From Octopus vulgaris (Eukaryota), in NCBI GenBank assembly GCA_951406725.2, contig OX597832.1, positions 7,254,001 through 7,318,000 of the forward strand: DNA of 64,000 nucleotides, given 5' to 3'. The translations under genes and the position numbers were made by a program. Under the pieces are notes generated by a model. That model searched no databases, had not been told where the DNA came from, and saw nothing but the letters and a program-made list of their open reading frames with translations. Each line of letters begins with the position of its first letter. The first letter of the stretch is position 1. This document shows, piece by piece, positions 3,764 through 62,238 of the stretch.

Positions 3764-6391
3764 ACATAGGAACTTCTTTGTGGTCACTCAACCTGCTAGA
3801 CATGGCAGTCAAATCTCCTAGCTGATATTGTACTATAGGGTATATAGGAAGATATAGTTAATGACCTAGATACACTAGTCTTGAAAATAAGATGGGATGG
3901 TCGTGGTTGAATGCCTTTGATTGCAAGGTCTGCTCAGTTAGAAGTGTCTTGAAGCTAAACAGCTACTAAATAAAAGTTTGTAAGAAAAAATATAAAGCCA
4001 AATATTTTGGGGGTATAATGACCATGCTGGGATTTTTGGATTTGAATTGTGAATGTTTAGGGGTGTTGCTAAGTTCTACAAAGCATTAATCTGGTACTCT
4101 ACCATTTCGAACATCCTTCTGAAACTAATATTTAAGAAATATTCTTAAAAAATTTCAGGAAAAAAAAAAAAAGGAGAAAGTTTAGAAAATCTCAACAAAA
4201 GATGAAAATAGTAACTATACTGACAAGTAATGTTAATCACCACATCAATACAGCTGTTTGATGGTACTACTGTTTTAAGCCCCGACAGATCTTCTGCCAA
4301 ACTGGTTGTAGGTGCAGCTTGCACCCTGTATATATTGCAAGCAGGAGAACGAACCCCTACCATCCTCCAGTAGAAACTTTGGAAGGATGAATAGTAAAAC
4401 CAAGAAAGGAGAAAGATAATTTGTACAAATCTACTCAAATCCTTTTATAGTAATGTTTCTCTATCATTTTTGTCTCGTGTCCCTTTTAGATTTTCCAGAA
4501 ATCTGTATACCCTCACTGTGAATGGACATAGTGTCTGTCTATCTGACTGTCAATCAATCCGTCAGTCAGAAGCCTAATTAAACCATATTGTAGGTTTAAT
4601 TCACTAATTTACTCATCTCCCTCATCCTAACGTCCCATACTCCAATAAAATATGATCATATCTTCCCAACTTACCCTAATTTTAATAATTCCTCCTCCTC
4701 ATCATCATCGTTTAGCATCCGCTTTCCATGCTGGCATGGGTTGGACGGTTCAACTGGAGTCTGGGAAGCCAGAAGGCTGCACCAGGCCCAGTCTGATCTG
4801 GCAATGTTTCTACGGCTGGATGCCCTTCCTAACACCAACCACTCCATGAGTGTAGTGGGTGCTTTTTACGTGCCACCGGCACAGGTGCCAGACGAGGCTG
4901 GCAAACGGCCTGTTTCTTTTTATGTTCTTTCAAAGGGTTCCTTACCTGAGGGTGTTCTTCTGTGATGAAACTAAACCTGATGTATTCTTGACATATAGTT
5001 ATTTTCATTTCTCTGTTGGAATTTTTTTTGTGCTTGGGTCTAGAACTAGTAATGTTTTACATGTAGCAAAAATTATTTAGAATAGGGAATGAGAGAGTTA
5101 ACTATTTTTATGAACAGCAACTCTCTCTCAACACACATGCATGCACGCACACACACACAAATACACACACACACATGGATACAAACATGCACCCAGTTAA
5201 TTGAACTATATTTGTTGTGTAACTTTAATTTCAACCACTTACTACACTCAAATCCTCTCAGAGGTCAAAAATTATCTGTTGCAGACAGGTTATCAATCCA
5301 GGGTTGGTAATACCTCTTTACTTATAACAATCTATAAAAACTGTGATAAATTTCAGTAAACTTCACTTTTTATTCAAGGGTATCTCCTGAAGAGTAAGCA
5401 ACTTAGGCTGGAATCTTTATGGTAAAAGTTCCTGTTTAAAATTAGATCCAAACACAAATCTGTGGTACCTGCCAGTACCACAGACATATTGCTATCCCAC
5501 CTTGTACTTCCCACATTTTAGTACAATGAGGATAATAATGGTTTATGATATAAGTGCAAAGTCACAGATATTTTTGAAGGGAATAATTGGTTATATTGAC
5601 GTTCACCTAGTATTTTAAGTCTTATGGCCTAGTGGTTAGAGTGCTGCACTCATGATTGTGAGGTCATGGTTTCAATTCTCACACCATCTGTGCATTGGGT
5701 TTTTGAGTAAAACGCGTCATTTCATGTTACTCCAGTCCACTCAGCTGTAAATGTGTAATCTTGCAACAGGTAGGTGTACAAAGGTGAGATAGTGATGCAG
5801 GAAAATCACCTGAAAGAAGTTCTTATGAGCCATGTTTTGTATCCAGCAATTGAAAGGATGAATAGTTCCACCCATACTGGGAATCCCGACGAGTTGGAAT
5901 TGGTTTATCTACTTTTGCTTTTTACTTGTTTCAGACTGGTCATGCTGGGGTACCGCCTTGAAGAGTTTTTAGTCAAATGAATTGACCCCAATTTTTATTT
6001 TTATGCCTTTACTTATTCTATCAGTCTCTTTTGCTGAACTGCTAAGTTACAGACACAAACAAACCGACAGTGGTTGTCAAGCAGTGGTCACACACACACA
6101 CACACATACACACACACTGTAATAGAAGATACCTAAGTATGTCTTGCAGACATCAAGTAACAGATATGAACCCATCCAAGCCCATGACTTATACTCATCT
6201 TATAGACTCCCTAGATTTTCTCATCTCATTAGAACTCAGATTCCACCAAGAATGAATTTGCATTTTTTTCTTCGCAGAATTGATTATATCCATTCTGCTC
6301 TTGTTCCTATTTAAGAAAATGCTGTTAGCTTTTGTTAGTATTTTTATATTTTCTAATCATTAAAAAAATTTTTTTTTATATCTCATTCCAG

Positions 6392-6514
6392 GTGATTTAA
6401 AACGAAACAGCATAACTTTACAAAATGAACTCTTGAAAAAGAAACACGAATTATTTGGTCCTGAAGCAAATATGTACGAAATCTTACTCAACCCTGGTTC
6501 ATCTTTAACAGAAT
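6392..6514 (+). CDS. NUS1: NUS1/NgBR internal coding exon (probably exon 2)
   Basis: ttccAG|GT..GAAT|GTAAGT; 123 nt, phase 1-1; (G)DLKRNSITLQNELLKKKHELFGPEANMYEILLNPGSSLTE resembles NgBR [23 protein letters not shown] (recalled); splices in frame to the next exon. Confidence 0.85.
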
Positions 6515-9095: not shown

Positions 9096-10467
9096 TCAAT
9101 AGGTATGTATGATCCAGGGATGCAGCTGTAGGGAGTTAGTAAGCTTTAAACTATAGGCAGCTAGTATAGAGAACAAAAAGTGAACAGTATACGATAGATT
9201 ATATTTATTAACATTGTAAGTTACACACTGCTTTCCATATCAAAGTTAAAAGGAATTTTAATAAGCTGGTTGTTTCCATGCAACTCACAGTTTAGAAACT
9301 AACATTGCTAAGAATGCAAATAAATATCTCAAATATATAAAGACTGGAACAGGTTGAATATCAACTACAATTGTTTCATAACTAGCTGAAGTTTGTTACA
9401 TAAGTATTAATAAACACACTGTAGCTTAGCTAATCTTCTGGTCATAGTCACCTCAATGAAGTTTATGATTAGGTTTGCTAAGCTGTGTTGTGTTTGTTAC
9501 TGCTTATCTAATGAACTTCACCTAGTTATGAAAAAATTGTACCCTGGGTTAGTGTCTTCTGCTGTATCTCTGGGTTGATCAAAGCTTGTGAGTGTATTTG
9601 GGAGATAGAAACTCTAAGAATCCTGTGTGTGTGTGTAGGTTTGTCTGATCACTACTGCTTGACAGTGTTGATATGTTTACGTTCCTGTAGCTTAGTGGTT
9701 CAGAGACAGAATAAATACTAGGCTTTAAAAAAAAATCCTGGGGTGCTCCAGTATGACTACAGTCAAATGACTGAAACAGATAAAAGATAAAGCTATTCTA
9801 CCTGTTCCACTCCTCATATATATGTAAATATATATATATATGTGTATAAAGATATCTTCTATGTAGTTGCTTGACCTGCTAGGAATAGTTACCAGATCTC
9901 CCTCCTTTCACATTCTACCACCTTGAAAACAAAGGACACTTGGAATAGTCCTGAAAAACAAAGATAAAGAAACAAAAAAAACAAAACAAAACAAAATAAG
10001 AGGGCCATGGTTGGATTGCCTTTAGTTATGTCTTCTGTCCAACTTAAGCCAATTTAGGGCCAAACTACAATAAACATTATGTTGCTCTTATCTCCTTGTT
10101 ACTAAACCACTAACTTCATTTAATTTCAAACAACTAATAATTACTTTTGTCTTTCTTTTTACTGGTTTGGTCTGTAATAAGGGGTTGTTTCCCCATGGCC
10201 TTTGCAGACCCGCGAAGACCAGTGGGATCAATGTGGTTGATGTTCTTGCACGACTGCACAAAAAATGTGGGCAGGTAGGGAATTCCAGAGTGGGGTCACC
10301 ATTCTATGGAGAAAGGATCAGGAGAAGTAGCCAGAGTGTGATCTGTGAGTGGTTGGTCTTGGTAGACAATGTGTGTGATGGATGAAAAGAGGAGACATAA
10401 GGGAGTCAGGTGGGTATGGGTGGAAGTAGCATGGGGTCAATCAGCTCTGAGGAGAAGAGGTCACTGT

Positions 10468-11483: not shown

Positions 11484-11721
11484 CCCTTGAGAATTGAGTC
11501 TGAATTATTTATTGCATTTAATGTCAAAATCCAGATTTTTATTTTTACTATTTTACCATTCCACTTGTTTATACTTTTAAGTTGTGAGATTTGAGCTTTT
11601 ATGAATGAAATAAATCTGGTGTGTTTTGAAGAATGTTTTGACAACAAAATTAGAAAATTATACACAAATGTAATTTGTTTATTTTTGTACTTATATTTTA
11701 TTTGTTTCTCTATTATTGTAG

Positions 11722-11880
11722 TACCAAAATGTGGCAAACAAATTTTGGTGAATATTCTCTCGCTTGATGATGGTAGGCAGTCTTTGGTACATATAGCACA
11801 ACATCTCAGTGAACAGGTTTTACAAAAGCAGATGAAAATATCTGATATAAATCCTGAATTGATAGACAGATTTTATAAAA
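11722..11880 (+). CDS. NUS1: NUS1/NgBR internal coding exon (probably exon 3)
   Basis: ttgtAG|TA..AAAA|GTAAGT; 159 nt, phase 1-1; PKCGKQILVNILSLDDGRQSLVHIAQHLSEQVLQKQMKISDINPELIDRFYK matches the NgBR VKVLSPEDGKADIVRAAQ segment. Confidence 0.93.
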
Positions 11881-11889
11881 GTAAGTATA

Positions 11890-12129
11890 CTTTTTACTCT
11901 CTTTTACTCTTTTATTTGTTTCAGTCATTTGACTGCGGCCATGCTGGAGCACAACCTTTAGTCAGGCAAATCGACCCCAGGACTTATTCTTTGTAAACCT
12001 AATACTTATTCTATCGGTCTCTTTTGCCGAACCGCTAAGTAACGGGGACATAAAACACACCAGCATCGGTTGTCAGGCGATGTTGGGGAACACACAGATA
12101 CACAAACATATACACACACATACACAAAC

Positions 12130-12160
<31 letters not shown>

Positions 12161-12315
12161 CGACAGGCTTCTTTCAGTTTCTGTCTACCAAATCCACTCA
12201 CAAGGCTTTGGTCAGCCCGAGGCTATAGTAGAAGACAGTTGCCCAAGGTGCCACGCAGAGGGACTGAACCCGGAACCATGTGGTTGGTAAGCAAGCACTT
12301 ACCACACAGCCACTC
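11890..12315 (-). mobile_element. tRNA-derived SINE family B, near full length
   Basis: Tail TTTTACTC repeats start ~10 nt after the exon donor; head with GGGACTGAACCC (reverse B box). Confidence 0.9.
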
Positions 12316-12333
12316 AAGATTTTTGTTATTTCT

Positions 12334-12518
12334 TTAACCCTTTAGCATTTGAACTGGTCACATCTGGCCCTTCACACCTAACCTACAATGTCATTCTACA
12401 AAAAATACAATCACATTATTGAAATCTCCAAACTGTGAGATAATGCATTATTAATTCAAAACAAAGTGAATGAATAAGCAGCAAATTTGATTGAGTAATC
12501 TGAATACTGAAGGGTTAA
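12334..12518. mobile_element. piggyBac-type MITE
   Basis: TTAA-CCCTTTAGCATT ... AATACTGAAGGG-TTAA. Confidence 0.8.
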
Positions 12519-12598
12519 CTTTGGTTCACATTGTTTTTGGTCTTAGAAGGTTTCAGTCTTTCCTTTCAACATCAACCTACCTGAGACCAGCTAAAGGA

Positions 12599-13046
12599 TT
12601 AATCCTTTAAGCATTGGAACTGGTCATATCTGGCCCAACACATTCTATTTGTTTTATGTTCAAACCAACCAGAACTGGTTTCTTGTACCCACTTTACAAT
12701 GTCATTCTAAAAATGCTCCTGCTGATGAAGAAGATTGGCCTGCAGGTGTTCTGTGCCAGTGCCACGTAAAAAGCACTCATATCAGTGCCACATAATGGCA
12801 CTCATGCCAGTGTCACGTTAGAAGCATCAAGCACACACTGTAAAGTGGTTGGTGTTAGGAAGAGCATCTGGCTGTAAAAACCAGACCAAATCAGACTGGA
12901 ACCTGGTGCCAGCATGGAAAATGGACGTTAAATGATGATGACATCTTGGAAATCTTGAAGCTGTGATATAATGCATGATTAATTCAAAAGAATGTGAATA
13001 AATAAATGTTACATTTGACTGAGTAATCTGAATGTCCAAAGGTTAA
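12599..13046. mobile_element. piggyBac-type MITE interrupted by a family D SINE (~12720-12940)
   Basis: TTAA-TCCTTT ... AAAGG-TTAA; MITE body resumes after the (GAT)n tail. Confidence 0.7.
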
Positions 13047-13073
13047 AAGAGTTGAATGCAAGATATCACAATA

Positions 13074-13308
13074 AAGGCGGTGAGCTGGCAGAAACGTTAG
13101 CACGCTGGACGAAATGCTTATTGGTATTTCGTCTGTCATTACGTTCTGAGTTCAAATTCTGCCAAGGTCGACTTTGCCTTTCATCCTTTCGAGGTCGATA
13201 AATTAAGTACCAGCTATGCATCGGGGTTGATGTAATCAACTTAATCCGTTTGTCTGTCCTTGTTTGTACCCTCTATGTTTAGCCCCTTGTGGGCAATAAA
13301 GAAATAAG
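13074..13308 (+). mobile_element. Meta-domain-type SINE family A, full length
   Basis: AAGGCGGTGAGCTGGCAG head, GAGTTCAAATTC B box, TSD AAGATATCACA (13060-13070 / 13306-13316). Confidence 0.9.
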
Positions 13309-13467
13309 ATATCACATAATCATGCAGAATTTCACAGCTTTTTACCAATGTAATGTTTCATTTTCCTGCATAAATGTAATACAAACCCAGTTCTGTAGCT
13401 GTAGGATGTAACCAGACTAATAATAGTTGAATTTACTGTGTACAACTGCTGGTTACTAGAGAATAGC

Positions 13468-14053
13468 TTAAGAATTAACAAGGGATTGGTTAAGGAATTA
13501 ACGAGGAGCCTTTTAAATCGGATTTTACAAAAGCAGTCAAAAACATTTGATAAAGATCCTGAATAATAGACAAAATTTTATTTTTCTTTCAATCTCAGTT
13601 CATATTGAGGTGAGGATAGGTTAAGGCGAAGTCTTTCAATAGCAATCTGCCTGAACTTGGCTCCCTTAGGCCTTTAGCATTTAAACTGACCATATCCTGT
13701 CCCAAAATATTCTATCCGTTTTTTGTTCAAACTAGCCAAATTTGGCCTCTCACACCTAGCCTCAATATCATTCAAAAACGAAATAGATACATCATCAAAA
13801 TTTCGAAGCTATGAGATAATGCATTATTAATTCAAAACAATGTGACTAAATGTGCTTTGACACATTAACTGAGATTGAAAGAAAAATAAAACACCTTAAT
13901 AGCCTTTATTAATTCAAGATCTTTATTGAATATTCTTGACCGCTTCTGTAAAATCTGATTTAAAAGTGATTTCGCTACTTCTTTTAGCGGGTTGAGTAAC
14001 TACATAGAAGCTCCTTTGTCAGTTCTTTAGCCATTTCTTTGTTTATTCCTTAA
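13468..14053. repeat. Imperfect inverted repeat whose arms contain a copy of part of the preceding NUS1 exon
   Basis: Arms ~13468-13570 and ~13905-14053; spacer holds a partial piggyBac MITE (~13671-13860). Confidence 0.8.
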
Positions 14054-15134
14054 ATGCTTAAAAGAGTTTCAAGCCAGTGAAGGAACCTCTTTGTGGTCAC
14101 TAGACTTGCTAGAAATAGCAGCCAAATGTTACTATGGCTCTGTCTAGTCAAGGATATGCTGTTGCTTATTGTCCATTGTGTAGACTGTAGTCGTATTTCC
14201 TCCACCGTAACCCTGTTGTTGATGAATGAAGGGTCAAGTAACCACAGTCAAGACTAACAACTAAAACTGTTTATGAGCTGTGACTTCCATATGCCTGGCA
14301 CTCTGAATATGCAGATATAAAAGATGTCTGGCATTTTGAATTGGGTTGAATTCCAGGTTTTAGTCGCTGTTTTTTTTTCTGTGGAAATCTTGGATTTATT
14401 GTGGAGAAAGATATGAAATTTCGGACATGAAACAGTCTCTCCATATTTAACATTTTAAGTTCGCTAGAGATTCGACAAATAGCGCAGGGGAAACAACTTT
14501 GTAAAAAAGCGAAAAAAGGCTCTAACGAAAGAACATCTGCGTCGTTCTCGAACTGCTAGAAATAGCAATAAAATCTTCCTCACAATATTCCTTTCTTTCT
14601 TAAAAGTAGAGAGACTCGTTAGATAATGTAGTTCTAGAAACGTAGTACCCAAAAGTAAGATGACTTAGTCGTGGATGATACACCTTTTATCAGTCATAAG
14701 AAATTGTTATTTATCGAAGAAAATTATTTTTAAAAAAATGTTTTAATTTGCACTCTAAGCCTAAGTAAAGGGAGGTAACCACTAACTCTTTATGTAAGGG
14801 AGATAAGCACTTAACGTCATTGCATTTGCTTTGTCTTAAAAAGTTGATTGCGACGTTCATAGCTCAGAAATGTCACAGGTTAATTGTTAGACCTTTGCTA
14901 TGCATCTGTGCTGTTAGGTAGATAGGCGAAATTTTGCTTAAGGAGTTTTGTGTCGCATTGACAAATCCTGTTGGTATGTATAAACTGTTGTGGAGAAAAA
15001 TTTTCATCTTTTGATTTGTACAATAGTTGGAAGGGCATTGTACAAGTTGTGCTGTTGTGTACTAGATGTAGTGGTTTACAAGTTGTATTACTGATATTAT
15101 AATATAATAAAACAGTATATTATATATAAAGTTC

Positions 15135-16122: not shown

Positions 16123-16349
16123 TTTACCCTTTAGTATTTAAACCGGCCATATCCGGCCAAAATATTTAATCTGTTTTATGTTCAAACTGACCAGATCCAG
16201 GCTCTCACACCTACTCTACAATGTTATTCTACATTAAGTAATTACACCATCAAGATCTTGAAGATATGAGATAATGCATGATTAATTCAAATCAATGTGA
16301 ATCAATAAGCATTATGTTTGATAGAATAATCAGAACACTAAAGGGTTAA
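16123..16349. mobile_element. piggyBac-type MITE
   Basis: TTTA-CCCTTTAGT ... ACTAAAGGG-TTAA; same family as 3559. Confidence 0.8.
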
Positions 16350-16637
16350 GGAGTAACTCTGCTTTCTTCCACATATTCTCCTCATTCAGTAATGGCTTAT
16401 AGTAGTGTTCCCATGCCTGTTTCATCCCACTATTCGTAAAGGTCAGTGCATCAGTAGCATCAAATTTATTTAAATTTTGTATAGAGATATTAGATATTAT
16501 TTTTGTAATTGTTTTTCTACCTGTCTCTCCTCTTACTGATTTGTCTGCCAACCTACACTTGTTTATCTACTTAGCAGCTTCCGAAATTCTCACCTCCTTC
16601 TCTCTTTCTCTAAAACTCCCTATCTATCTACTTACAG

Positions 16638-16737
16638 TTACATATGGTTGTCCAGCACCTGATCTTATCATCCGATTTGGCAAAACAGAATCCTTGTTAG
16701 GATTCTCTCCATGGCAATCACAGTTCTCAGAAATATT
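16638..16737 (+). CDS. NUS1: NUS1/NgBR internal coding exon (probably exon 4)
   Basis: ttacAG|TT..ATT|GTAAGT; 100 nt, phase 1-2; TYGCPAPDLIIRFGKTESLLGFSPWQSQFSEI matches the cis-prenyltransferase-family motif GCPDPDLVLKFG..LGFLPWHIRLTEI. Confidence 0.95.
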
Positions 16738-17215: not shown

Positions 17216-17640
17216 GGATCTTTTTGGTTTGAATGCAGTTTTTAACATAATTTCTAGGTAACTAAAAAATTTTAAACTTCGTATACTGGTAGAATGTGTT
17301 TATAAAACATCTTTTTCTCTTGGCTTTATTGAGAAAATTCTATAGTTTGTAAGATATTTGGTCTTTAATTTCTTGCATTTCGGCAATTTCAACCAATGAA
17401 TGACCGTCTATTGAGGTGAAAACATTCTGTGCCTTATGAATATGTCCCTCGTTTAAGAAACAGATTGGGTTTATTTACATTTGTGAAGTAAAAAAGATAC
17501 CCTTCCCCCACCCCTAATCCTAACTAACCCTAAATCTAAAATAGATTGAAATGCAATAGTTCGATACTACGGTCATAATTATGGGTGTCATAGTTACCTA
17601 GAAATTATGTTAAAAACTGCTGTTCAAACTGAAAAGATCC
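17216..17640. mobile_element. MITE with ~50-bp TIRs, GG termini (possibly Merlin-type)
   Basis: GGATCTTTTTGGTTTGAA..TAGGTAACTA / TAGTTACCTA..TTCAAACTGAAAAGATCC; 8-nt flanks GTTTTGTT / GATTTATT (6/8); internal TAACCC-like tract. Confidence 0.75.
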
Positions 17641-19485: not shown

Positions 19486-19576
19486 ACCTTGTCCATCACA
19501 TGTAGGTTTGGATTACCTAACATATCTTAGCACTTTAATAGACTATGCTAATTCATCACAGCGCTGCGGTAAATAA
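19486..19576 (+). CDS. NUS1: NUS1/NgBR last coding exon
   Basis: tttcAG|A, phase 2; PCPSHVGLDYLTYLSTLIDYANSSQRCGK-TAA; ends in the C-terminal RxG motif of NgBR/Nus1 (human QRLGK). Confidence 0.95.
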
Positions 19577-22110: not shown

Positions 22111-22668
22111 TTAATTCTTTTGATACTGACCTGCCTGATACCACTTCTGCTTATATAAAAAAAAACTTTTCTTTTTAAGACTTCACGTTTAAATTAAAGC
22201 CTTCGATCTTAATTTTATTTAAGATTCATTTTGTTAAGCTCTGTTCCAAATACCAGCAGAATAACAGCAGGGTTAGTTACTTTGTTAAATCCTCTCATAT
22301 TCTTGGTTATTTACAAAAATAGACAATGTTTTACCTTAGAAATATGGTGACAAAAGGCTTAAAGGCTGCAAGGTTTTTGTTGTAATGTGTCAAGAAATAA
22401 GCCACAGCCTGTACTGCTGCTGTTACTAACATATTTCTGTTGAAATGCACTTACCATATTTCTGTTGAAATGCACTGCCTTTGTTCTAATTAATTTTGAA
22501 AATGGTGAAGAATTTAGTAAAGTAACTTTGACCTTTATTAACCTGGCGTTTGGCACATAAATCAACATGAAATTTTGAAAGAAAGATTTTATTTTGCTCA
22601 CTTTAAACTTGAAGTTTGTATCATAGAAGCAGAGGTGGTCTTGGGTGGGTTGGTATCAAATAGGTTAA
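22111..22668. mobile_element. Second piggyBac-type MITE family
   Basis: TTAA-TTCTTTTGATACTGACCTGCC ... GGGTGGGTTGGTATCAAATAGG-TTAA degenerate TIRs. Confidence 0.65.
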
Positions 22669-22889
22669 ATGACCATATAGAAGCTCCCTTGGTGTGTCTG
22701 GTTTGAGATGCACCTTTAGTAATGGCCATCCAGTTGCTCCAACTGGATAATTCATAATCTCTCATTCAGTCTCTCTGTCTGTTTAGGAACATTCTTCAAT
22801 TTCTGCAATATACTTACATTAAATTACAATAATCAAATTGTTCTCAATAACTTTCTTTGATATCTCTTTATTTTTTATTTTATTTATAT

Positions 22890-23282
22890 AATGTAAAGTA
22901 TAAAAGCCATCTCAATATGGCTAACCACAAAGTGGGGGTGTTACTGTAGCTTTTAGCCCCAGGAGATCATAGTCTCCAGCTGGCTTTAGACACCCTTTCA
23001 GTGCCCTTGAAGTATTTGCAAAGTGAGGCCATCCCTTCCTCGCAAGCCTGAGTGATACGCATGGACCGGTTTCGAGATTATTGTCTCTTATTGTCTCGAA
23101 ACCGGTCCGTGTGTATCACTCAGGCTTGCGAGGAAGGGATGGCCTCCCTTTGCAAATACTTCAAGGGCACTGAAAGGGTGTCTAAAGCCAGCTGGAGACG
23201 ATGATCTCCTGGGGCTAAAAAGCTACAGTAACACCCCCACTTTGTGGTTAGCCATATTGAAATGGTTTTTATACTCTACATT
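22890..23282. repeat. Near-perfect long palindrome (~188-bp arms, 16-nt loop), probable inverted Penelope-like repeat
   Basis: 22890-23077 is the reverse complement of 23094-23282 with few mismatches; centre carries a hammerhead half-site GAAACCGGTC. Confidence 0.9.
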
Positions 23283-27034: not shown

Positions 27035-29239
27035 CAGAACCGTTGCTAATATGATAGTATTGCCTACATGTAGAATTGATCCTCTTGATTCAGATGCTTT
27101 TATTGAAAAATTTCTGGATCCTAAACCAAATTTAGGCTACGGGTTCGAGAGAAAGATAGCAGAAGTGGTTATCAAGAAGATTGTAACAGCTACCTAAGAA
27201 AATAATATTTGCAAAAGAGCACAACGATTTCTACTCTGCCTTTATAAAGAACTCAAGCACTGTTTGCCAGAAAATATTAATATACTGAGGAATATCAAAT
27301 GCTTTTCAGTAGAGAATATTTTGCAGCATTTCAAAGAGCCAATTTTACCTGTCTTAGAAGCAATGCATTTAAATGAAGAAAAAATTGCTTCGATTGAAAT
27401 TCAGTTTAATAGCATTCATTTATGAGAGGTGTATGAAAAGTCTTGAGCCTCAAGAAAACAAAACAGAGTACAAGACTTCTGATGATATATTTTCAACATA
27501 GTCCCCCTCTATGGCTGAACACTTTGTCCAGCGCTGCTGAAGCGTCATTATCCCGGTGTAGAGGCACTCTTTTGTTTGCGACTCCAAGGAACTTCCCACA
27601 GCGTCTATGACTTCATTGTCACTGGCAAAATGGCGACCAGCCAGCGCTTTTTTCATTTTGGAAATAGAGGAAAGTCAGAGGGGGATAAGCCTGGCAAAAA
27701 TAATGGATGAGGAACAAGTTCGTATCCACAATCACGAATTGTTGCCATGGTTGGAGCATTGTGGTGATGAAAAAGGACTCCTCTGGTGAGCATTCCTGGC
27801 CTTTTTCTTTGATTGCTTCTCAGAGGTGTTTTAGTAACTGAGAATAATACAGCCTTGTCACAGTGTGACCCTTTTCAAGGTAATTGAACAGCAAGACACC
27901 TTGAGAATCCTAAAAAACTGACACCATAACGTTACCAGCCGAAGGAATGACCCTGGGGTAGGAAAAGATGTGTGCTTCCACTGCTTTGGTTTCAGGCTGG
28001 TAGTGATGAATCCAACTTTCGTCCATAGTAATGAAATGAGTAAGAAAATTCTCTTCATCAGCTTCAAACAGTTTCAGATTGCTCGTGGACAAAGTGCACC
28101 TGGTGCGTTTCTGTTCAGGTGTGAAAAGGCGAGAGGCCCACCTTGCAGAAACCTTGAGAACCCAAGTTCTTTTGTCACAATGTTTTCTACTCTTTCAGTT
28201 GAGATGCCCAGTCTCTCAGCTATCTGAAGACATGATATTCGACGATCTTGCATTATCATACCAAGAGCAAGGTCAATGTTGTCCTCAATGATTGCAGTTG
28301 GAGGTCTCTCTGGTCTGAGATCATCTTCCACACTCTCCCTGCCACGCTGGAATTCATTTACCCAGCTTTTGACTGTTGCAAATGAAGGAGCATTGTCTGT
28401 TAAGGTTCTCACCATATCTTCATGGATTTCTGATGGAGTCATGCCTTTCAAATGAAGGTACTTTATGACAGCACGATACTCAGTTTTCTCCATTGTAACC
28501 TTGACACTTGTTTATTCAAAATTCTGCAAAAAAAAAAAAACAAAAACAAAAAAAAAACTAAAGTACCAGAATCATGAAAATGAGCAAGAATACTCCAAAA
28601 AGACTGTACTTACCAGAAAAAATTGTTTCAGCTACCTAGCAGCCCCATTTCTAGGTTAGGCTCAAAACTTTTCATACAACCCTCATAGTTAAATGGACGA
28701 ATACATCTAATACTGAGGTATTCTGGCTGGAAGTTTTGGAATATAAAGATGCTGTTGAAGGAAATCCTTTTAGAGATGTTGCAAATTTTACCATCAATCT
28801 ATTGACATTTCCAAACTCAAATGCAGAAGTTGAATGGTTGCTCAGTTAGTATAGGTGTATTCAAATCAAAATTGAAAAGCAAACTGCATCTTCCTATGCT
28901 TAGATCAATACTACCTATAAAATATGGCCTGAAAAGATATGGCAAATGTTGCAAAGACTTCGCTTTTCCAAAACACATAATTATCAAGATAGGAACCTTG
29001 AATGTATATAGAAGTCATGACCTAGGACTGCAGCTGAAAGTGGTCAAATCAGTGAAATTCGAGAAATTATTTCTCAATGCTGAATATAATTAAAGAAAGT
29101 AAATAAAAATGTAAATAAAAATTGAACTTTTTGATATAATTAATCTTTAGCATTTTTTTTCTTATTTTTAAGCATTTTTTTTTGTATTTTTTTCTACTGA
29201 AATTTAGCATAAAATTGTGATTTTAAATTGGCAACGGTG
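27035..29239 (+). mobile_element. hAT-like transposon 3' half (decayed), split by a mariner
   Basis: Frame ..EIQFNSIH| resumes after the mariner as VKWTNTSNTEVFWLEVLEYKDAVEGNPFRDVANFTINLLTFPNSNAEVE (hAT C-terminal dimerisation-like); ends in TTGGCAACGGTG TIR-like end. Confidence 0.75.
27421..28687 (-). mobile_element. Full-length defective mariner (Tc1/mariner DD34D)
   Basis: TA-flanked TIRs TGAGAGGTGTATGAAAAGT / ACTTTTCATACAACCCTCA; MEKTEYRAVIKYL.., FITMDESWIHHYQPETK, RWTKCSAIEGDYVE; frameshifts and deletions. Confidence 0.92.
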
Positions 29240-29303: not shown

Positions 29304-30190
29304 AGTCCCATAAATGCGGTTTGCTTATACTTTTATTTTTCAAAATTAAGATAAACAAAGTTCTTTTGAAATCTAAAATATACTCTCCTTCATTTTCTAC
29401 AATCTTCTTCCTTCTATCTGGTAGACTTACAAGGACCCTCTTCCAAAATCTACTTGTTCGTGACGTAAAATACTCTTCCAGTACTGTTCTGATCTCGCCT
29501 ACAGAATTCATACTTTTCCGTCCAAATGATTTTGAAGACTGCAAAATAAATGATATTCAAATAAGGTAATCTCCGGCGAATATGGTGGGTGGGGCATCGT
29601 TTCCCATTCAAATTGCTCCAGCCCCCGGAATGTCATCCTCACTGTATGTGGCTGAGCATTATTCTTAAGAAAGAACAACATTTTTCTTCTAGCGCTTACT
29701 CGAATGACCAAATCCAAACTTCTCTGCTAGTTCTTCAACAGTTACGATGGGATTTTGTTCCACCAGGGTTTGTAGGACGTCCTCGGCGAGCTCTATTTAA
29801 TCTTCTAGGACGAGGCTCGTCTTCTAGGCTGTAGTTTTCAGCTCGGAATTTCTGGAACCACCGTTGACAGTGGCTTATGCTTATTATCTGATCTCCATAT
29901 ACGGCATTAATATTCCTCGCACTTTCCGTTGCGTTATTGCCTTTATTGAACTCATAAAGCAAAATATACCGAATATGCTACTTTGTCACTTCCATTATAA
30001 CTTGGAGAAAATAACATTTAAAATCGAACTGTACTCTTCAGAACTTGCACTAAGAATAAGTTCTAGGTAAAACTACTACCTGCTTTAATAGCAAGTTGAT
30101 GCAGGTAGTTTATCCCATCCCCCTCCGACTTTTACTTCATGCAATTGACCCTCCTCCACAAAAACGCATTATTTATGGGATGACCCAATA
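29304..30190 (-). mobile_element. Defective mariner
   Basis: MLYEFNKGNNATESARNI..WFQKFRA..LEDEPR, WETMPHPPYSPEI, RRKKIVENEGEYILD; TIR-like CCCATAAAT / ATTTATGGGATGACCCAATA. Confidence 0.88.
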
Positions 30191-54711: not shown

Positions 54712-55790
54712 GATCCAAAATGCCTTTGAATGTCGCATCATATCCCTTCGGCAAAATCTTTTAACCACCAAACGTCGAAGTGCATCCCTTGACCAAGTTT
54801 ACATACATGAAGCTGATAACATCATAAGACTTGGAAGGCAGCTCTTTGAACAACACTCTTTGTCTGATAACCTAGAATACATGCCCCAAGAAGTTGCACG
54901 ACCCCACAGCAACATATCATCAGATGAAAGGATGAGATTATATGAGCAGAAGACTATGCACGGATATGTTAGTAGAAAGCTCCGAGATGATAGTAACATC
55001 GATCATCAAAGCAGTTTATCATGGACAAATAGCCGGATTACTACCTTCCACTGTGAAGGGTATGCGTTTACAATCCAGGAACAGGAAATATCAACCAAGT
55101 ACCTGATGCACAAAAGGGATAGTGACGCGGGAAAAGCCGTAAAAGTTGACAATTGATGCAGACTTTGTGGAGGTCACATTGAAGATATCACCCACATCAT
55201 AAGCAGTTGTCCAAACATGTCATCACGGTTTTATCTACCGATAAGACATGACGCTGTAGCTACGACACTCTATAATGAAATCCGTCGGAAAGATAATCCC
55301 GAGGACAAAGAAGTAAAAACCCACAATATGGTAGAAGCCATAGCCACTTATAATGAAAAGGAATACTGGTGGAATGTACCAGTGAAAACCTCAATAAAAT
55401 GTAAGCACAACAGACCTGATATAATGATTTGGGATAGAGAAGAGAAACAGTGCACAGTTGTAGAAATTAGCTGCCCAGTGGATGTTAACATAAAGCTGAA
55501 GATCAGTGAAAAAGAGAACACCTACGCTGAACAATTGAGAAATCTGCAGTTACTCTGTCCAGATTACAAACATAGGTTTATACCTGTTATTACTGGAGCC
55601 CTGTAACACGTACATACATACAATTATTGGGGATTGTAACACATCCATCCATCCATCCATCCATCTATACATACATATAAAAACCCTGTTGATGCTGAAA
55701 TTCCAATGAAGGAACCTTGGATCTAGGTTAGAAACCGGTTCTTTCTTTATTGGCAAGAAATCTTGAAATAAACTGATAATGACACACATA
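54712..55790 (+). mobile_element. R4/Dong-like RLE LINE, 5'-truncated and defective
   Basis: EGYAFTIQEQEISTKY, CCHC knuckle CRLC..THIISSC, RHD, HNRPDIMIWD..VEISCP..EKENTY..IPVITGAL restriction-like endonuclease; in-frame stop at 55154-55156. Confidence 0.9.
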
Positions 55791-59399: not shown

Positions 59400-60415
59400 T
59401 ATTATGGCTGCCCCCTCGTTATCGAGTATGGCCATTGCACGAAGCTTAACTGTTACTGGTGCTGTGATCGAATGTGGCTTTTTAGCCCAGCTAAAGATCT
59501 ACAATGTCTTGTACAGAATTGGCAACTAAAACCTTTACCGGTAATAGCCGGCTGTAGTTGTAACTGGGCTTCATGTACCTTTGCATGTCGTTTAAGTCCT
59601 CCTGCTTACACTCTCTTCCACATGCCCGACAGATATGATTAGTATGGTGTGTTGCACCACCACCAGACCAGGTTGTCACTCATCTGCCTCGCTTCATGAC
59701 TACGAAGATGACTCTTGAGTCCAGCTCTACTGAGGCAGGGTCTTGCACAGACATTGCATGTCAGCATCATAGGAAGACCCTTCCCATCTGGAAGTGTAAC
59801 AGCGATGCCCTTCCTGACATCCATCCTTACTTTCTCATGTGCAACTCGAGATTTCTCAAAAGTGGCTGTCCCCTCGTGCACAATCCTTCTCCACCTGCTA
59901 CGATCAATAGCTATGCCCTCCCATGTGTCAGGAGAGATGCAAGCATCTCTTAAGGAAGCCTTCAGCAAGTCCTTATACCTCTTTTTTGGTTTATGTGGAG
60001 GTCGTTCTCCTTATATAACTCTCCATCAAAGAGTTGTTTTGGCACTCTTGAATCCTTCATCCTGACCAGATGACCACTCCATCTGAGCCTTTGCTTTAAC
60101 ACAAGAGCTTCTATACTTTCACACCGAGAGGCTTCCAATATTTCAAAATCACTGATGCGGTCCTTCCACTTAATGCCATAGATCCGTCTGAGGCACATCT
60201 GATGGAAATGTTCCAGTTGTTTAAGATGGTATCGATATGTGACCCACGTCTCGCAGGCATAGAGAAGAGAAGGGAGCACACATGCCTTGTACACCTTTAT
60301 CTTTGTCTTTCTGCATATGTGTCGCCGACTCCAAAGGCGCTTTTCTAACCTTCCGAAAGCAACACTTGCTTTCCTAATTCTATATGGAATTTCATCATCC
60401 AAATTGCTATATCTA
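59400..60415 (-). mobile_element. RTE-clade (BovB-like) LINE, 5'-truncated 3' kilobase
   Basis: LDDEI..RIRKASVAFGRL..TKIKVYKACVLPSLLYACETW..LRWSGHLVRM..RVPKQLF; C2H2 finger CNVC..GLKSHLRSH; (ATA) tail; frameshift near 60010. Confidence 0.92.
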
Positions 60416-60749
60416 TTAATATATATATACACGCACGCACATACACACACACACACATGTATGTGTGTGTGTGTTTTGTGTGTGTGTTGTGTGTGTGTTT
60501 CACCATTACAGCTTCATATACAAAACATGCCCTGCCGATATTTATATAAGTACATGGAATTCCTGCTACAAAATATTCTACTCTTGGTAAATGACTTTTA
60601 ATGAGATTCTAGCCTGGCAATAAATAAAATGTTGTAACCAGTTTATATCAAATATTTGGAATATATGTTATGTCGATGCATTTATTAAAAACAAGTTTCT
60701 CGTTATTTTAAAAAGCTGTCATATTTGACAGCGTAGGCAAATTACTCTC

Positions 60750-61604: not shown

Positions 61605-62238
61605 CAGTCACAAATCTATCTAAAGAGGGTGAAATGAGTTTGCAAGAATGGAAGAAGAGCAGATGTCAACTCAGGATTTGCAGTTCCTTTTGGGCAATTC
61701 ATGAGGCACCCATTTTCCAAGTTAGGTACCTTTCCAAGTTGTTGAAGATGACGATGAACAGTTGTATGGTTTGAACTAATCTTTATTGCCAATTCTTCAA
61801 CTGATAATGCAGGATTTTCTTCAAGTAATGCCTCAAGGAGCTTATCATCAAACTCAACTGGACATCTTGTTCGATCTTCATCTTCAAAGCTGAAATCTCC
61901 ACTTCTGAATTTTGCAAACCACCTTCTGCAAGTTCTCTCATTCAATCATTCTTTCCCATAAACTGAGTGCATGTTTCGAGTCGCTTCGACTGCAGAGTTT
62001 CCTTTTTGTCCTCATAAAGCATTATGTGTCTTAAATGCGCTTTGGACACTTCCATGTTAGAAAGGGTTTTAATCAAAGAAATTTTATTTCTATTATTCTG
62101 TAAAATATTTAATTAGTTTAAATGTACACAAATTCATAAAAATAAATTTTAATTCCATTAGACATTCTAAAATACTATTAAATTTCATTCAATTTTAAAA
62201 AGGGTAAAATCGGACAGAACTTATGGGATGACCTGACA
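61605..62238 (-). mobile_element. Mariner 5' half
   Basis: MEVSKAHLRHIMLYE..RTCRRWFAKFRSGDFSFEDEDR..HTTVHRHLQQLGK; TIR GAACTTATGGGATGACCTGA. Confidence 0.88.

Follow-up and report, generated by a model that had tools for sequence, protein, structure and literature searches.

The NUS1 Gene in the Window

The window (the whole 64-kb stretch of Octopus vulgaris DNA that was analysed) carries on its forward strand the gene NUS1/NgBR, coding for a cis-prenyltransferase subunit and identified by identity to named NUS1 proteins and by a PF01255 domain. The peptide encoded by exon 3 has 100% identity to P0001 (the named O. vulgaris NUS1), 98% to O. bimaculoides and 77% to Argonauta hians, and six of six PDB matches of this peptide are NUS1 (E 0.045–0.062). 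No first coding exon could be located within the 64-kb window. The gene features referred to below are:

6392–6514 (+): NUS1 exon 2 (label used here), located by tblastn with P0004, AG/GT ends
11722–11880 (+): NUS1 exon 3, source of the duplicated piece, supported by AG/GT ends, identity to P0001 and RNA-run contigs
11814–11876 (+): exon 3 segment copied in intron 3, from sequence alignment
11850–11852 (+): Asn codon AAT in exon 3; if the exon paired with the antisense copy, A11850 would lie opposite C13921
16638–16737 (+): NUS1 exon 4, AG/GT ends, ending the 4,757-nt intron 3
19486–19576 (+): last coding exon of NUS1, ending ...QRCGK stop

Contigs from three of three probable RNA runs match exactly 11722–11880 inside longer records, a limited match as spliced mRNA would give. 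The first 29 nt of exon 3 (11722–11750) formed a 9-bp local stem from the first exon base in four of four folds. The O. vulgaris protein models P0001 and P0005 skip the 100-nt exon at 16638–16737 and end ...RFYK-NLVHHM, with the C-terminal RxG tail lost. This exon is intact with AG/GT ends and is included in the models of O. sinensis and O. bimaculoides; the skip is either an annotation slip or a real skipped isoform. An open stretch on the reverse strand (16330–16620) abuts the exon 4 acceptor.

Two Intronic Copies of an Exon 3 Segment

Intron 3 contains an inverted repeat with a copy of the same exon 3 segment in each arm. The gene lies on the forward strand, and therefore the exon, the sense copy and the antisense copy stand in one pre-mRNA in that order. 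The features of the repeat are:

13468–13603 (+): left arm of the intronic inverted repeat, from alignment and fold, 123 arm-to-arm pairs in the minimum free energy (MFE) structure
13519–13581 (+): sense copy of the exon piece (proposed decoy), from BLASTN and alignment
13604–13863 (no strand): loop between the arms, 260 nt, of which ~13665–13863 belongs to a dispersed repeat family
13864–14053 (+): right arm of the inverted repeat, from alignment and fold
13907–13957 (−): antisense copy of the exon piece (proposed editing-complementary sequence, ECS), from BLASTN and alignment
13968–14019 (−): dispersed-repeat fragment inside the right arm, with matches at 3764–3798, 9856–9881 and 22663–22691

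The sense copy matches exon positions 11814–11876 in 51 of 62 aligned columns with three gap columns, and BLASTN within the 64-kb window gave 81.7% identity over 60 nt (E 2e-9). The preliminary description of this DNA had reported a degenerate direct copy ending at 13582; the copy is confirmed, with its end one base earlier. Chance likeness was excluded, as none of 500 dinucleotide shuffles of the exon scored as well against intron 3. The antisense copy is weaker, with 72.5% identity to 11814–11864 (BLASTN, E 0.008) and a score that was reached by 1 of 500 shuffles. No further copy of the exon-like core was found in 64 kb, where the exon itself, 1.7 kb away, was the only other match, and as a control none of the three other exons in the window had a copy better than E 0.19. 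An alternative coding exon was ruled out for the sense copy by a frameshift and a stop (a 1-nt gap breaks the frame and leads to a stop after 15 codons), and its 5′ side is without the exon's acceptor.

The two arms are identical in 116 of 136 aligned columns, the right arm has 54 extra bases, and the inverted repeat folds with a z of −7.65 against 20 shuffles. The repeat had previously been placed at 13468–13570 / 13905–14053; it is real and extends further on the inner side of both arms. About 43 nt of the length of the dispersed-repeat fragment at 13968–14019 are absent in the left arm. The repeat in the loop, judged from the sequence, is cut off at the start of the right arm, and repeat contigs pile up there. 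At position 11850 the exon has A and both intronic copies have G, an earlier observation that the alignment bears out. The inner end of the left arm (13575–13619) has a pyrimidine tract and CAG, followed 11 nt on by GTGAG, a possible cryptic 11-nt micro-exon that is probably due to chance.

Predicted Folding of the Pre-mRNA

Whole-region folds covered 11700–14120 (~2.4 kb) and used models that ignore proteins and kinetics. At both 13 and 22°C these folds gave ~120 expected pairs between the two arms and 0.0 between exon and antisense copy. When the left arm was held unpaired, 42–43 exon:antisense pairs appeared (43 at 13°C), joining 11814–11864 with 13907–13957. On these models the antisense arm would thus have two mutually exclusive partners, as had been proposed, and blocking the sense copy frees the pairing with the exon. 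Forcing the exon:antisense pairs with the left arm free cost 52.0 kcal/mol at 13°C and 49.0 kcal/mol at 24°C (MFE), and the advantage of the hairpin, shifting by 3 kcal/mol between these temperatures, was never near zero.

Two-strand energies led to the same ranking, ranging between 10 and 37°C from −193 to −119 kcal/mol for arm:arm and from −74 to −36 kcal/mol for exon:antisense. When only the shared core was considered, sense:antisense pairing ranged from −82 to −50 kcal/mol over these temperatures compared to −62 to −33 kcal/mol for exon:antisense. The exon:antisense duplex, over 50 positions, comprises 36 Watson–Crick pairs, 6 GU pairs and 8 mismatches. Among 1,821 windows scored for binding to the exon core at 37°C, the antisense window ranked second (−33.3, against a mean of −15.1), with two unrelated windows binding about equally (−34.0 and −33.1). 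The antisense arm lies 260 nt from its sense partner and ~2,040 nt from the exon, a proximity that points the same way as the energies, to the hairpin over exon pairing.

The exon:antisense duplex is thus predicted in silico not to form in its context. The preliminary description had inferred a competing-structure switch that temperature could tune; the models do not uphold it, with the costs given above, 0.0 exon:antisense pairs, two states that are not within a few kcal/mol of each other and a ranking that stayed the same over 10–37°C. The comparison of duplex energies at several temperatures, suggested in that description as a check, had the local hairpin winning throughout, which in silico is the first half of the outcome that was there held to speak against a switch. 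The sense copy is predicted to sequester the antisense arm as a lock and not as a switch.

History of the Duplications

Differences from the exon were counted over the 45 in-register bases at 11814–11858, with the out-of-register bases 11859–11863 and the bases before the core (11806–11813) dropped. Seven differences are common to both copies, the G at 11850 among them, two are private to the sense copy and six to the antisense copy. Both copies therefore derive from one already diverged duplicate. Three of the shared differences (11817, 11842, 11848) alter residues or bases that the exon has in common with Argonauta, so these arose in the copy, and a fourth (11832) originated in the exon. Retro-copying of edited RNA was rejected as the source, since just one of the seven shared differences is A>G.

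At three codons where Argonauta and cuttlefish encode R, V and A/E, the copies show Octopus states, namely the K codon itself and the first base of the codons for I and S. These Octopus states, in a dating that draws on protein sequence only, suggest that the first duplication likely took place after the Octopus–Argonauta split. The match of 'IDK' to the outgroups was discarded as a dating character because the alignment at that place is gapped and ambiguous. Both arms are also present in a DNA run (X17) of a related species, organism E, and therefore predate the split from organism E too. The exon change in organism E gives the Leu of P0002.

The claim that the exon changed from GAT to AAT after the duplication is one of two equally parsimonious histories. 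At the 11850 codon cuttlefish encodes Asp, O. vulgaris Asn and Argonauta Lys (its codon begins with A), and among 50 distant homologues 16 have Asp and 4 have Asn. An ancestral GAT (Asp) is reasonable on this evidence. With Lys in Argonauta, parsimony does not separate the two timings: an exon with AAT at duplication followed by A>G in the copy requires three changes, and so does an exon with GAT at duplication.

Comparison With a Related Species

The comparison with organism E consists of one species pair at ~5% divergence and has low power, and the counts for sub-regions are minimums taken from the differences listed. Against the window, the X17 contigs show 17 differences in 390 bases for the left arm and 23 in 308 for the right arm. 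Within the cores, the antisense copy has at least 6 differing sites of 53 and the sense copy at least 2 of 64. In exon 3 at least 1 of 159 sites differs among the differences listed, and the exon contig has two other letters over 11650–11888. The antisense core changed faster than the left-arm contig (P = 0.044), with P = 0.25 when compared to the rest of its own contig. The sense core was not slower than its flanks (P = 1.0), a result that leaves room for constraint on it.

Polarisation by the paralogues assigned four antisense changes to organism E, and two antisense changes and one exon change to the lineage of the window. All six antisense changes and the exon change would break or weaken Watson–Crick pairs, and none appears to be compensated. 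The antisense core thus shows no sign of constraint in this one species pair.

Three observations count against a decaying relic. The exon:antisense core energy is equal in the two species (−58.4 and −58.5 at 13°C, from the differences listed only), the sense copy, scored on the core alone, is ahead by ~20 kcal/mol in the window but by ~10 kcal/mol in organism E, and no synonymous exon difference is listed where ~2 were expected (P = 0.12). The arm:arm energy in organism E stays at −178.

Evidence on Editing

The exon contigs of three of the nine probable RNA runs (X10, X13 and X20) have no other letters than the exon, and such contigs record majority letters only. A majority A>G at exon 3 adenosines was found in none of the three contig sets, which drop minority variants and come from tissue that is not on record. 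None of these three runs covers 13393–13641, and they give almost no cover at 13891–13973, gaps that are uninformative on editing of the stem and on expression. For squid, an editing level below 1% is reported at 54% of neural recoding sites (PMC9068888), and most A-to-I editing in octopus is described as lying in introns and 3′UTRs (PMC9699675).

A full-text search found no paper combining octopus, RNA editing and NUS1. NUS1/NgBR was absent from the searched supplements of PMC8382921, PMC7703385, PMC5850729 and PMC9699675, blanks that are uninformative. No case of a competing ECS born by duplication, or of inverted duplication as an origin of editing, was seen in titles and the starts of abstracts, in a search that most subscription papers lay outside.

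Three Octopus exon codons in 11826–11852 differ from cuttlefish by one A>G step (K/R, I/V, N/D), and two of them differ in this way also from Argonauta. These codons are candidate restorative editing sites regardless of the hairpin.

Other Repeats and Elements in the Window

A near-perfect foldback lies at 22890–23282, 3.3 kb past the NUS1 stop, with arms at 22951–23077 / 23094–23220 (127 nt, 97%) and extension arms at 22890–22954 / 23218–23282 (65 nt, 95%). If transcribed, it would make a far better dsRNA than the hairpin of NUS1 intron 3. Intron 2 has a short-loop inverted repeat at 9366–9541 (71-nt arms, 80% complementary, 34 nt apart), and intron 4 has a MITE-like element at 17216–17640 with 50-nt terminal inverted repeats (92%, 30 nt perfect, 327 nt apart). 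Broken remnants of mariner-type transposases with a Mos1 HTH domain (PF17906) were found on the reverse strand at 28077–28511, 29738–29977 and 61619–61945. Open stretches at 54713–55606 (+), 59639–60513 (−) and 16330–16620 (−) resemble what we take to be non-LTR retrotransposon remnants; a Pfam search with two pieces of these stretches gave no match.

Discussion

The copies in intron 3 are predicted to pair together, and not with the exon, at every modelled temperature, which points to an ordinary relic and not to an RNA-editing switch. We consider it probable that they are a decayed, near-neutral relic of duplication that folds into a ~120-bp hairpin and is likely without a selected function; its neutrality we infer. 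In a first step, ~60 nt of exon 3 would have been copied 1.7–2.1 kb downstream, beside a dispersed-repeat fragment, the homology being observed and the copying mechanism presumed. This copy diverged, and then a block of 140–190 nt around it would have been duplicated in inverted orientation; the shared differences attest to the common ancestry of the arms, and either arm could have been the first. Once the right arm is transcribed the arms would be expected to pair, and ADAR may then edit the stem non-specifically, as it does other intronic hairpins, before splicing removes it. The arms kept decaying at about the intron rate, as observed for one species pair. The hairpin would keep the antisense copy off the exon constitutively.

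Such a stem fits the class of ordinary intronic dsRNA. Among the 19 inverted pairs that the gene span contains at E ≤ 1e-5, it ranks third in strength, and first among the 10 whose arms are separated by less than 3 kb. It resembles the non-specific intronic and 3′UTR dsRNA that inverted repeats form in coleoids, with editing of the ubiquitous type (PMC9068888; PMC9699675), in being a long imperfect intronic hairpin with repeat fragments and one of many. It differs from that repeat dsRNA in that the stem derives partly from the host gene's own exon and not from a transposon, and it is known here from sequence and fold.

The sense copy could alternatively have been kept by selection as a constitutive shield, soaking up the antisense copy. 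The premise is that, with no sense copy present, the antisense copy would form a duplex with the exon reaching to within 16 nt of the 5′ splice site and would disturb splicing or cause unwanted editing. The 42–43 exon:antisense pairs that form when the sense arm is blocked agree with this, as do the fewer differences in the X17 sense core (at least 2 of 64) than in the antisense core (at least 6 of 53). We nevertheless regard the explanation, together with its premise, as unlikely: the sense core has changed no more slowly than its flanks (P = 1.0), the same problem would disappear if the antisense arm were lost, and of the 50 positions in the unmasked duplex 8 would be mismatches and 6 GU pairs. 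Two unrelated windows of the 1,821 scored bind the exon core with similar strength.

The stem could also act as an editing inducer that recruits ADAR and raises editing of the nearby exon in a separate short stem, for which exon:antisense pairing would be unneeded. With ~120 imperfectly paired bp and a place in the intron that follows a coding exon, the NUS1 stem resembles the long stable stems described for Gabra3 and GluA2 (PMC5654063). Those elements are reported to lie tens of nucleotides to ~220 nt from their exons (32–220 nt among the distances listed; PMC5654063) compared to ~1.6 kb here, the arms of the NUS1 stem are not visibly conserved, and an edited site in the exon is only hypothetical, all of which make an inducer very unlikely.

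ADAR prefers A:C mismatches, and A11850 would sit in such a mismatch in the exon:antisense duplex. A regulated switch could be imagined in which temperature, unwinding by ADAR or a protein frees the antisense arm to recode the exon, for example at A11850 from Asn to the ancestral Asp. The two pairings are mutually exclusive, and Asp is found in cuttlefish and in 16 of 50 distant homologues (Asn in 4 of 50), so an edit of A11850 would count as restorative as PMC6881472 uses the term; RNA structure is also reported to make editing temperature-sensitive in Drosophila (PMC4299485). Against this stand the gap of ~50 kcal/mol, moving by 3 kcal/mol from 13 to 24°C, a competitor at 260 nt with the exon at ~2,040 nt, an antisense core that changes at or above the intron rate without compensation and, weakly, A as the majority letter at all exon adenosines in three of three contig sets. 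A switch is on this evidence highly improbable. The same low probability attaches to the antisense arm as a working ECS derived from the exon's own duplicate, in which a neuronal ADAR or helicase would open the hairpin, A11850 would be edited and the sense copy would set the level.

The layout is that of the intronic ECS described for the GluA2 Q/R site and Drosophila prominin (PMC5691062), an intronic complement to the gene's own exon in an imperfect duplex with A:C mismatches. It differs in that a nearer and stronger partner is predicted to occupy the antisense arm fully, and in that the arm is not conserved. In prominin, single changes in the ECS are reported to cut editing from ~80% to 8–21% or none (PMC5691062), whereas the NUS1 antisense arm took at least 6 changes in 53 nt. 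Despite its ECS-like layout we do not file the arm as an ECS, because the duplex is not predicted in its context and conservation is not seen. The docking site and selector pairings of Dscam are another known system in which one sequence has two mutually exclusive partners; they are conserved and the partners are of similar strength. In contrast, the partners in the NUS1 intron differ by ~50 kcal/mol and are decaying.

Small RNA genes can arise by inverted duplication, and hairpin RNA (hpRNA) loci of Drosophila can originate from duplication of their target genes. The NUS1 stem might be a proto hairpin-RNA, diced to small RNAs whose antisense strand could target exon 3. The stem is long and imperfect, comes from the gene's own sequence and shares with the Drosophila hpRNA loci, which are described as making endo-siRNAs, an origin from inverted duplication of a gene fragment. 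It differs from them in lying inside the source gene's own intron, and with a 260-nt loop, just 73% match to the exon, no conservation signal and no Rfam match on the arms (two weak matches over the region, both at 12087–12162), this role is scarcely credible. Nor is it at all probable that the arms are terminal repeats of a foldback or MITE family with a captured or chance likeness to the exon: they do flank one repeat fragment and contain another in a region rich in such elements, and terminal inverted repeats of unequal length, with outer ends blurred by decay, are present (13468–13603 / 13864–14053), but the shuffles exclude chance for the sense copy, the exon 1.7 kb away is its only other relative in 64 kb, many dispersed copies were not found in the 64-kb window or among X17 contigs at ≥87%, and X17 gave one contig per exon-like core (≥87%) compared to the 30–128 differences collected by neighbouring repeats.

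A true switch would amount to a new mode of recoding control, which the evidence makes unlikely, and if the antisense arm were a working ECS, it would document the birth of a coleoid recoding structure with a built-in decoy. To our knowledge, the structures that underlie recoding in coleoids have been mapped poorly, and for this reason a genome-wide count of exon/sense/antisense sets, set against editing tables, could be useful. On the most likely reading, a near-neutral relic, the hairpin is of little import: an octopus gene rich in repeats holds yet another local duplication that folds within an intron and is decaying. Still, it illustrates how an intron sequence complementary to an exon may be born, and that the same event can mask that sequence.
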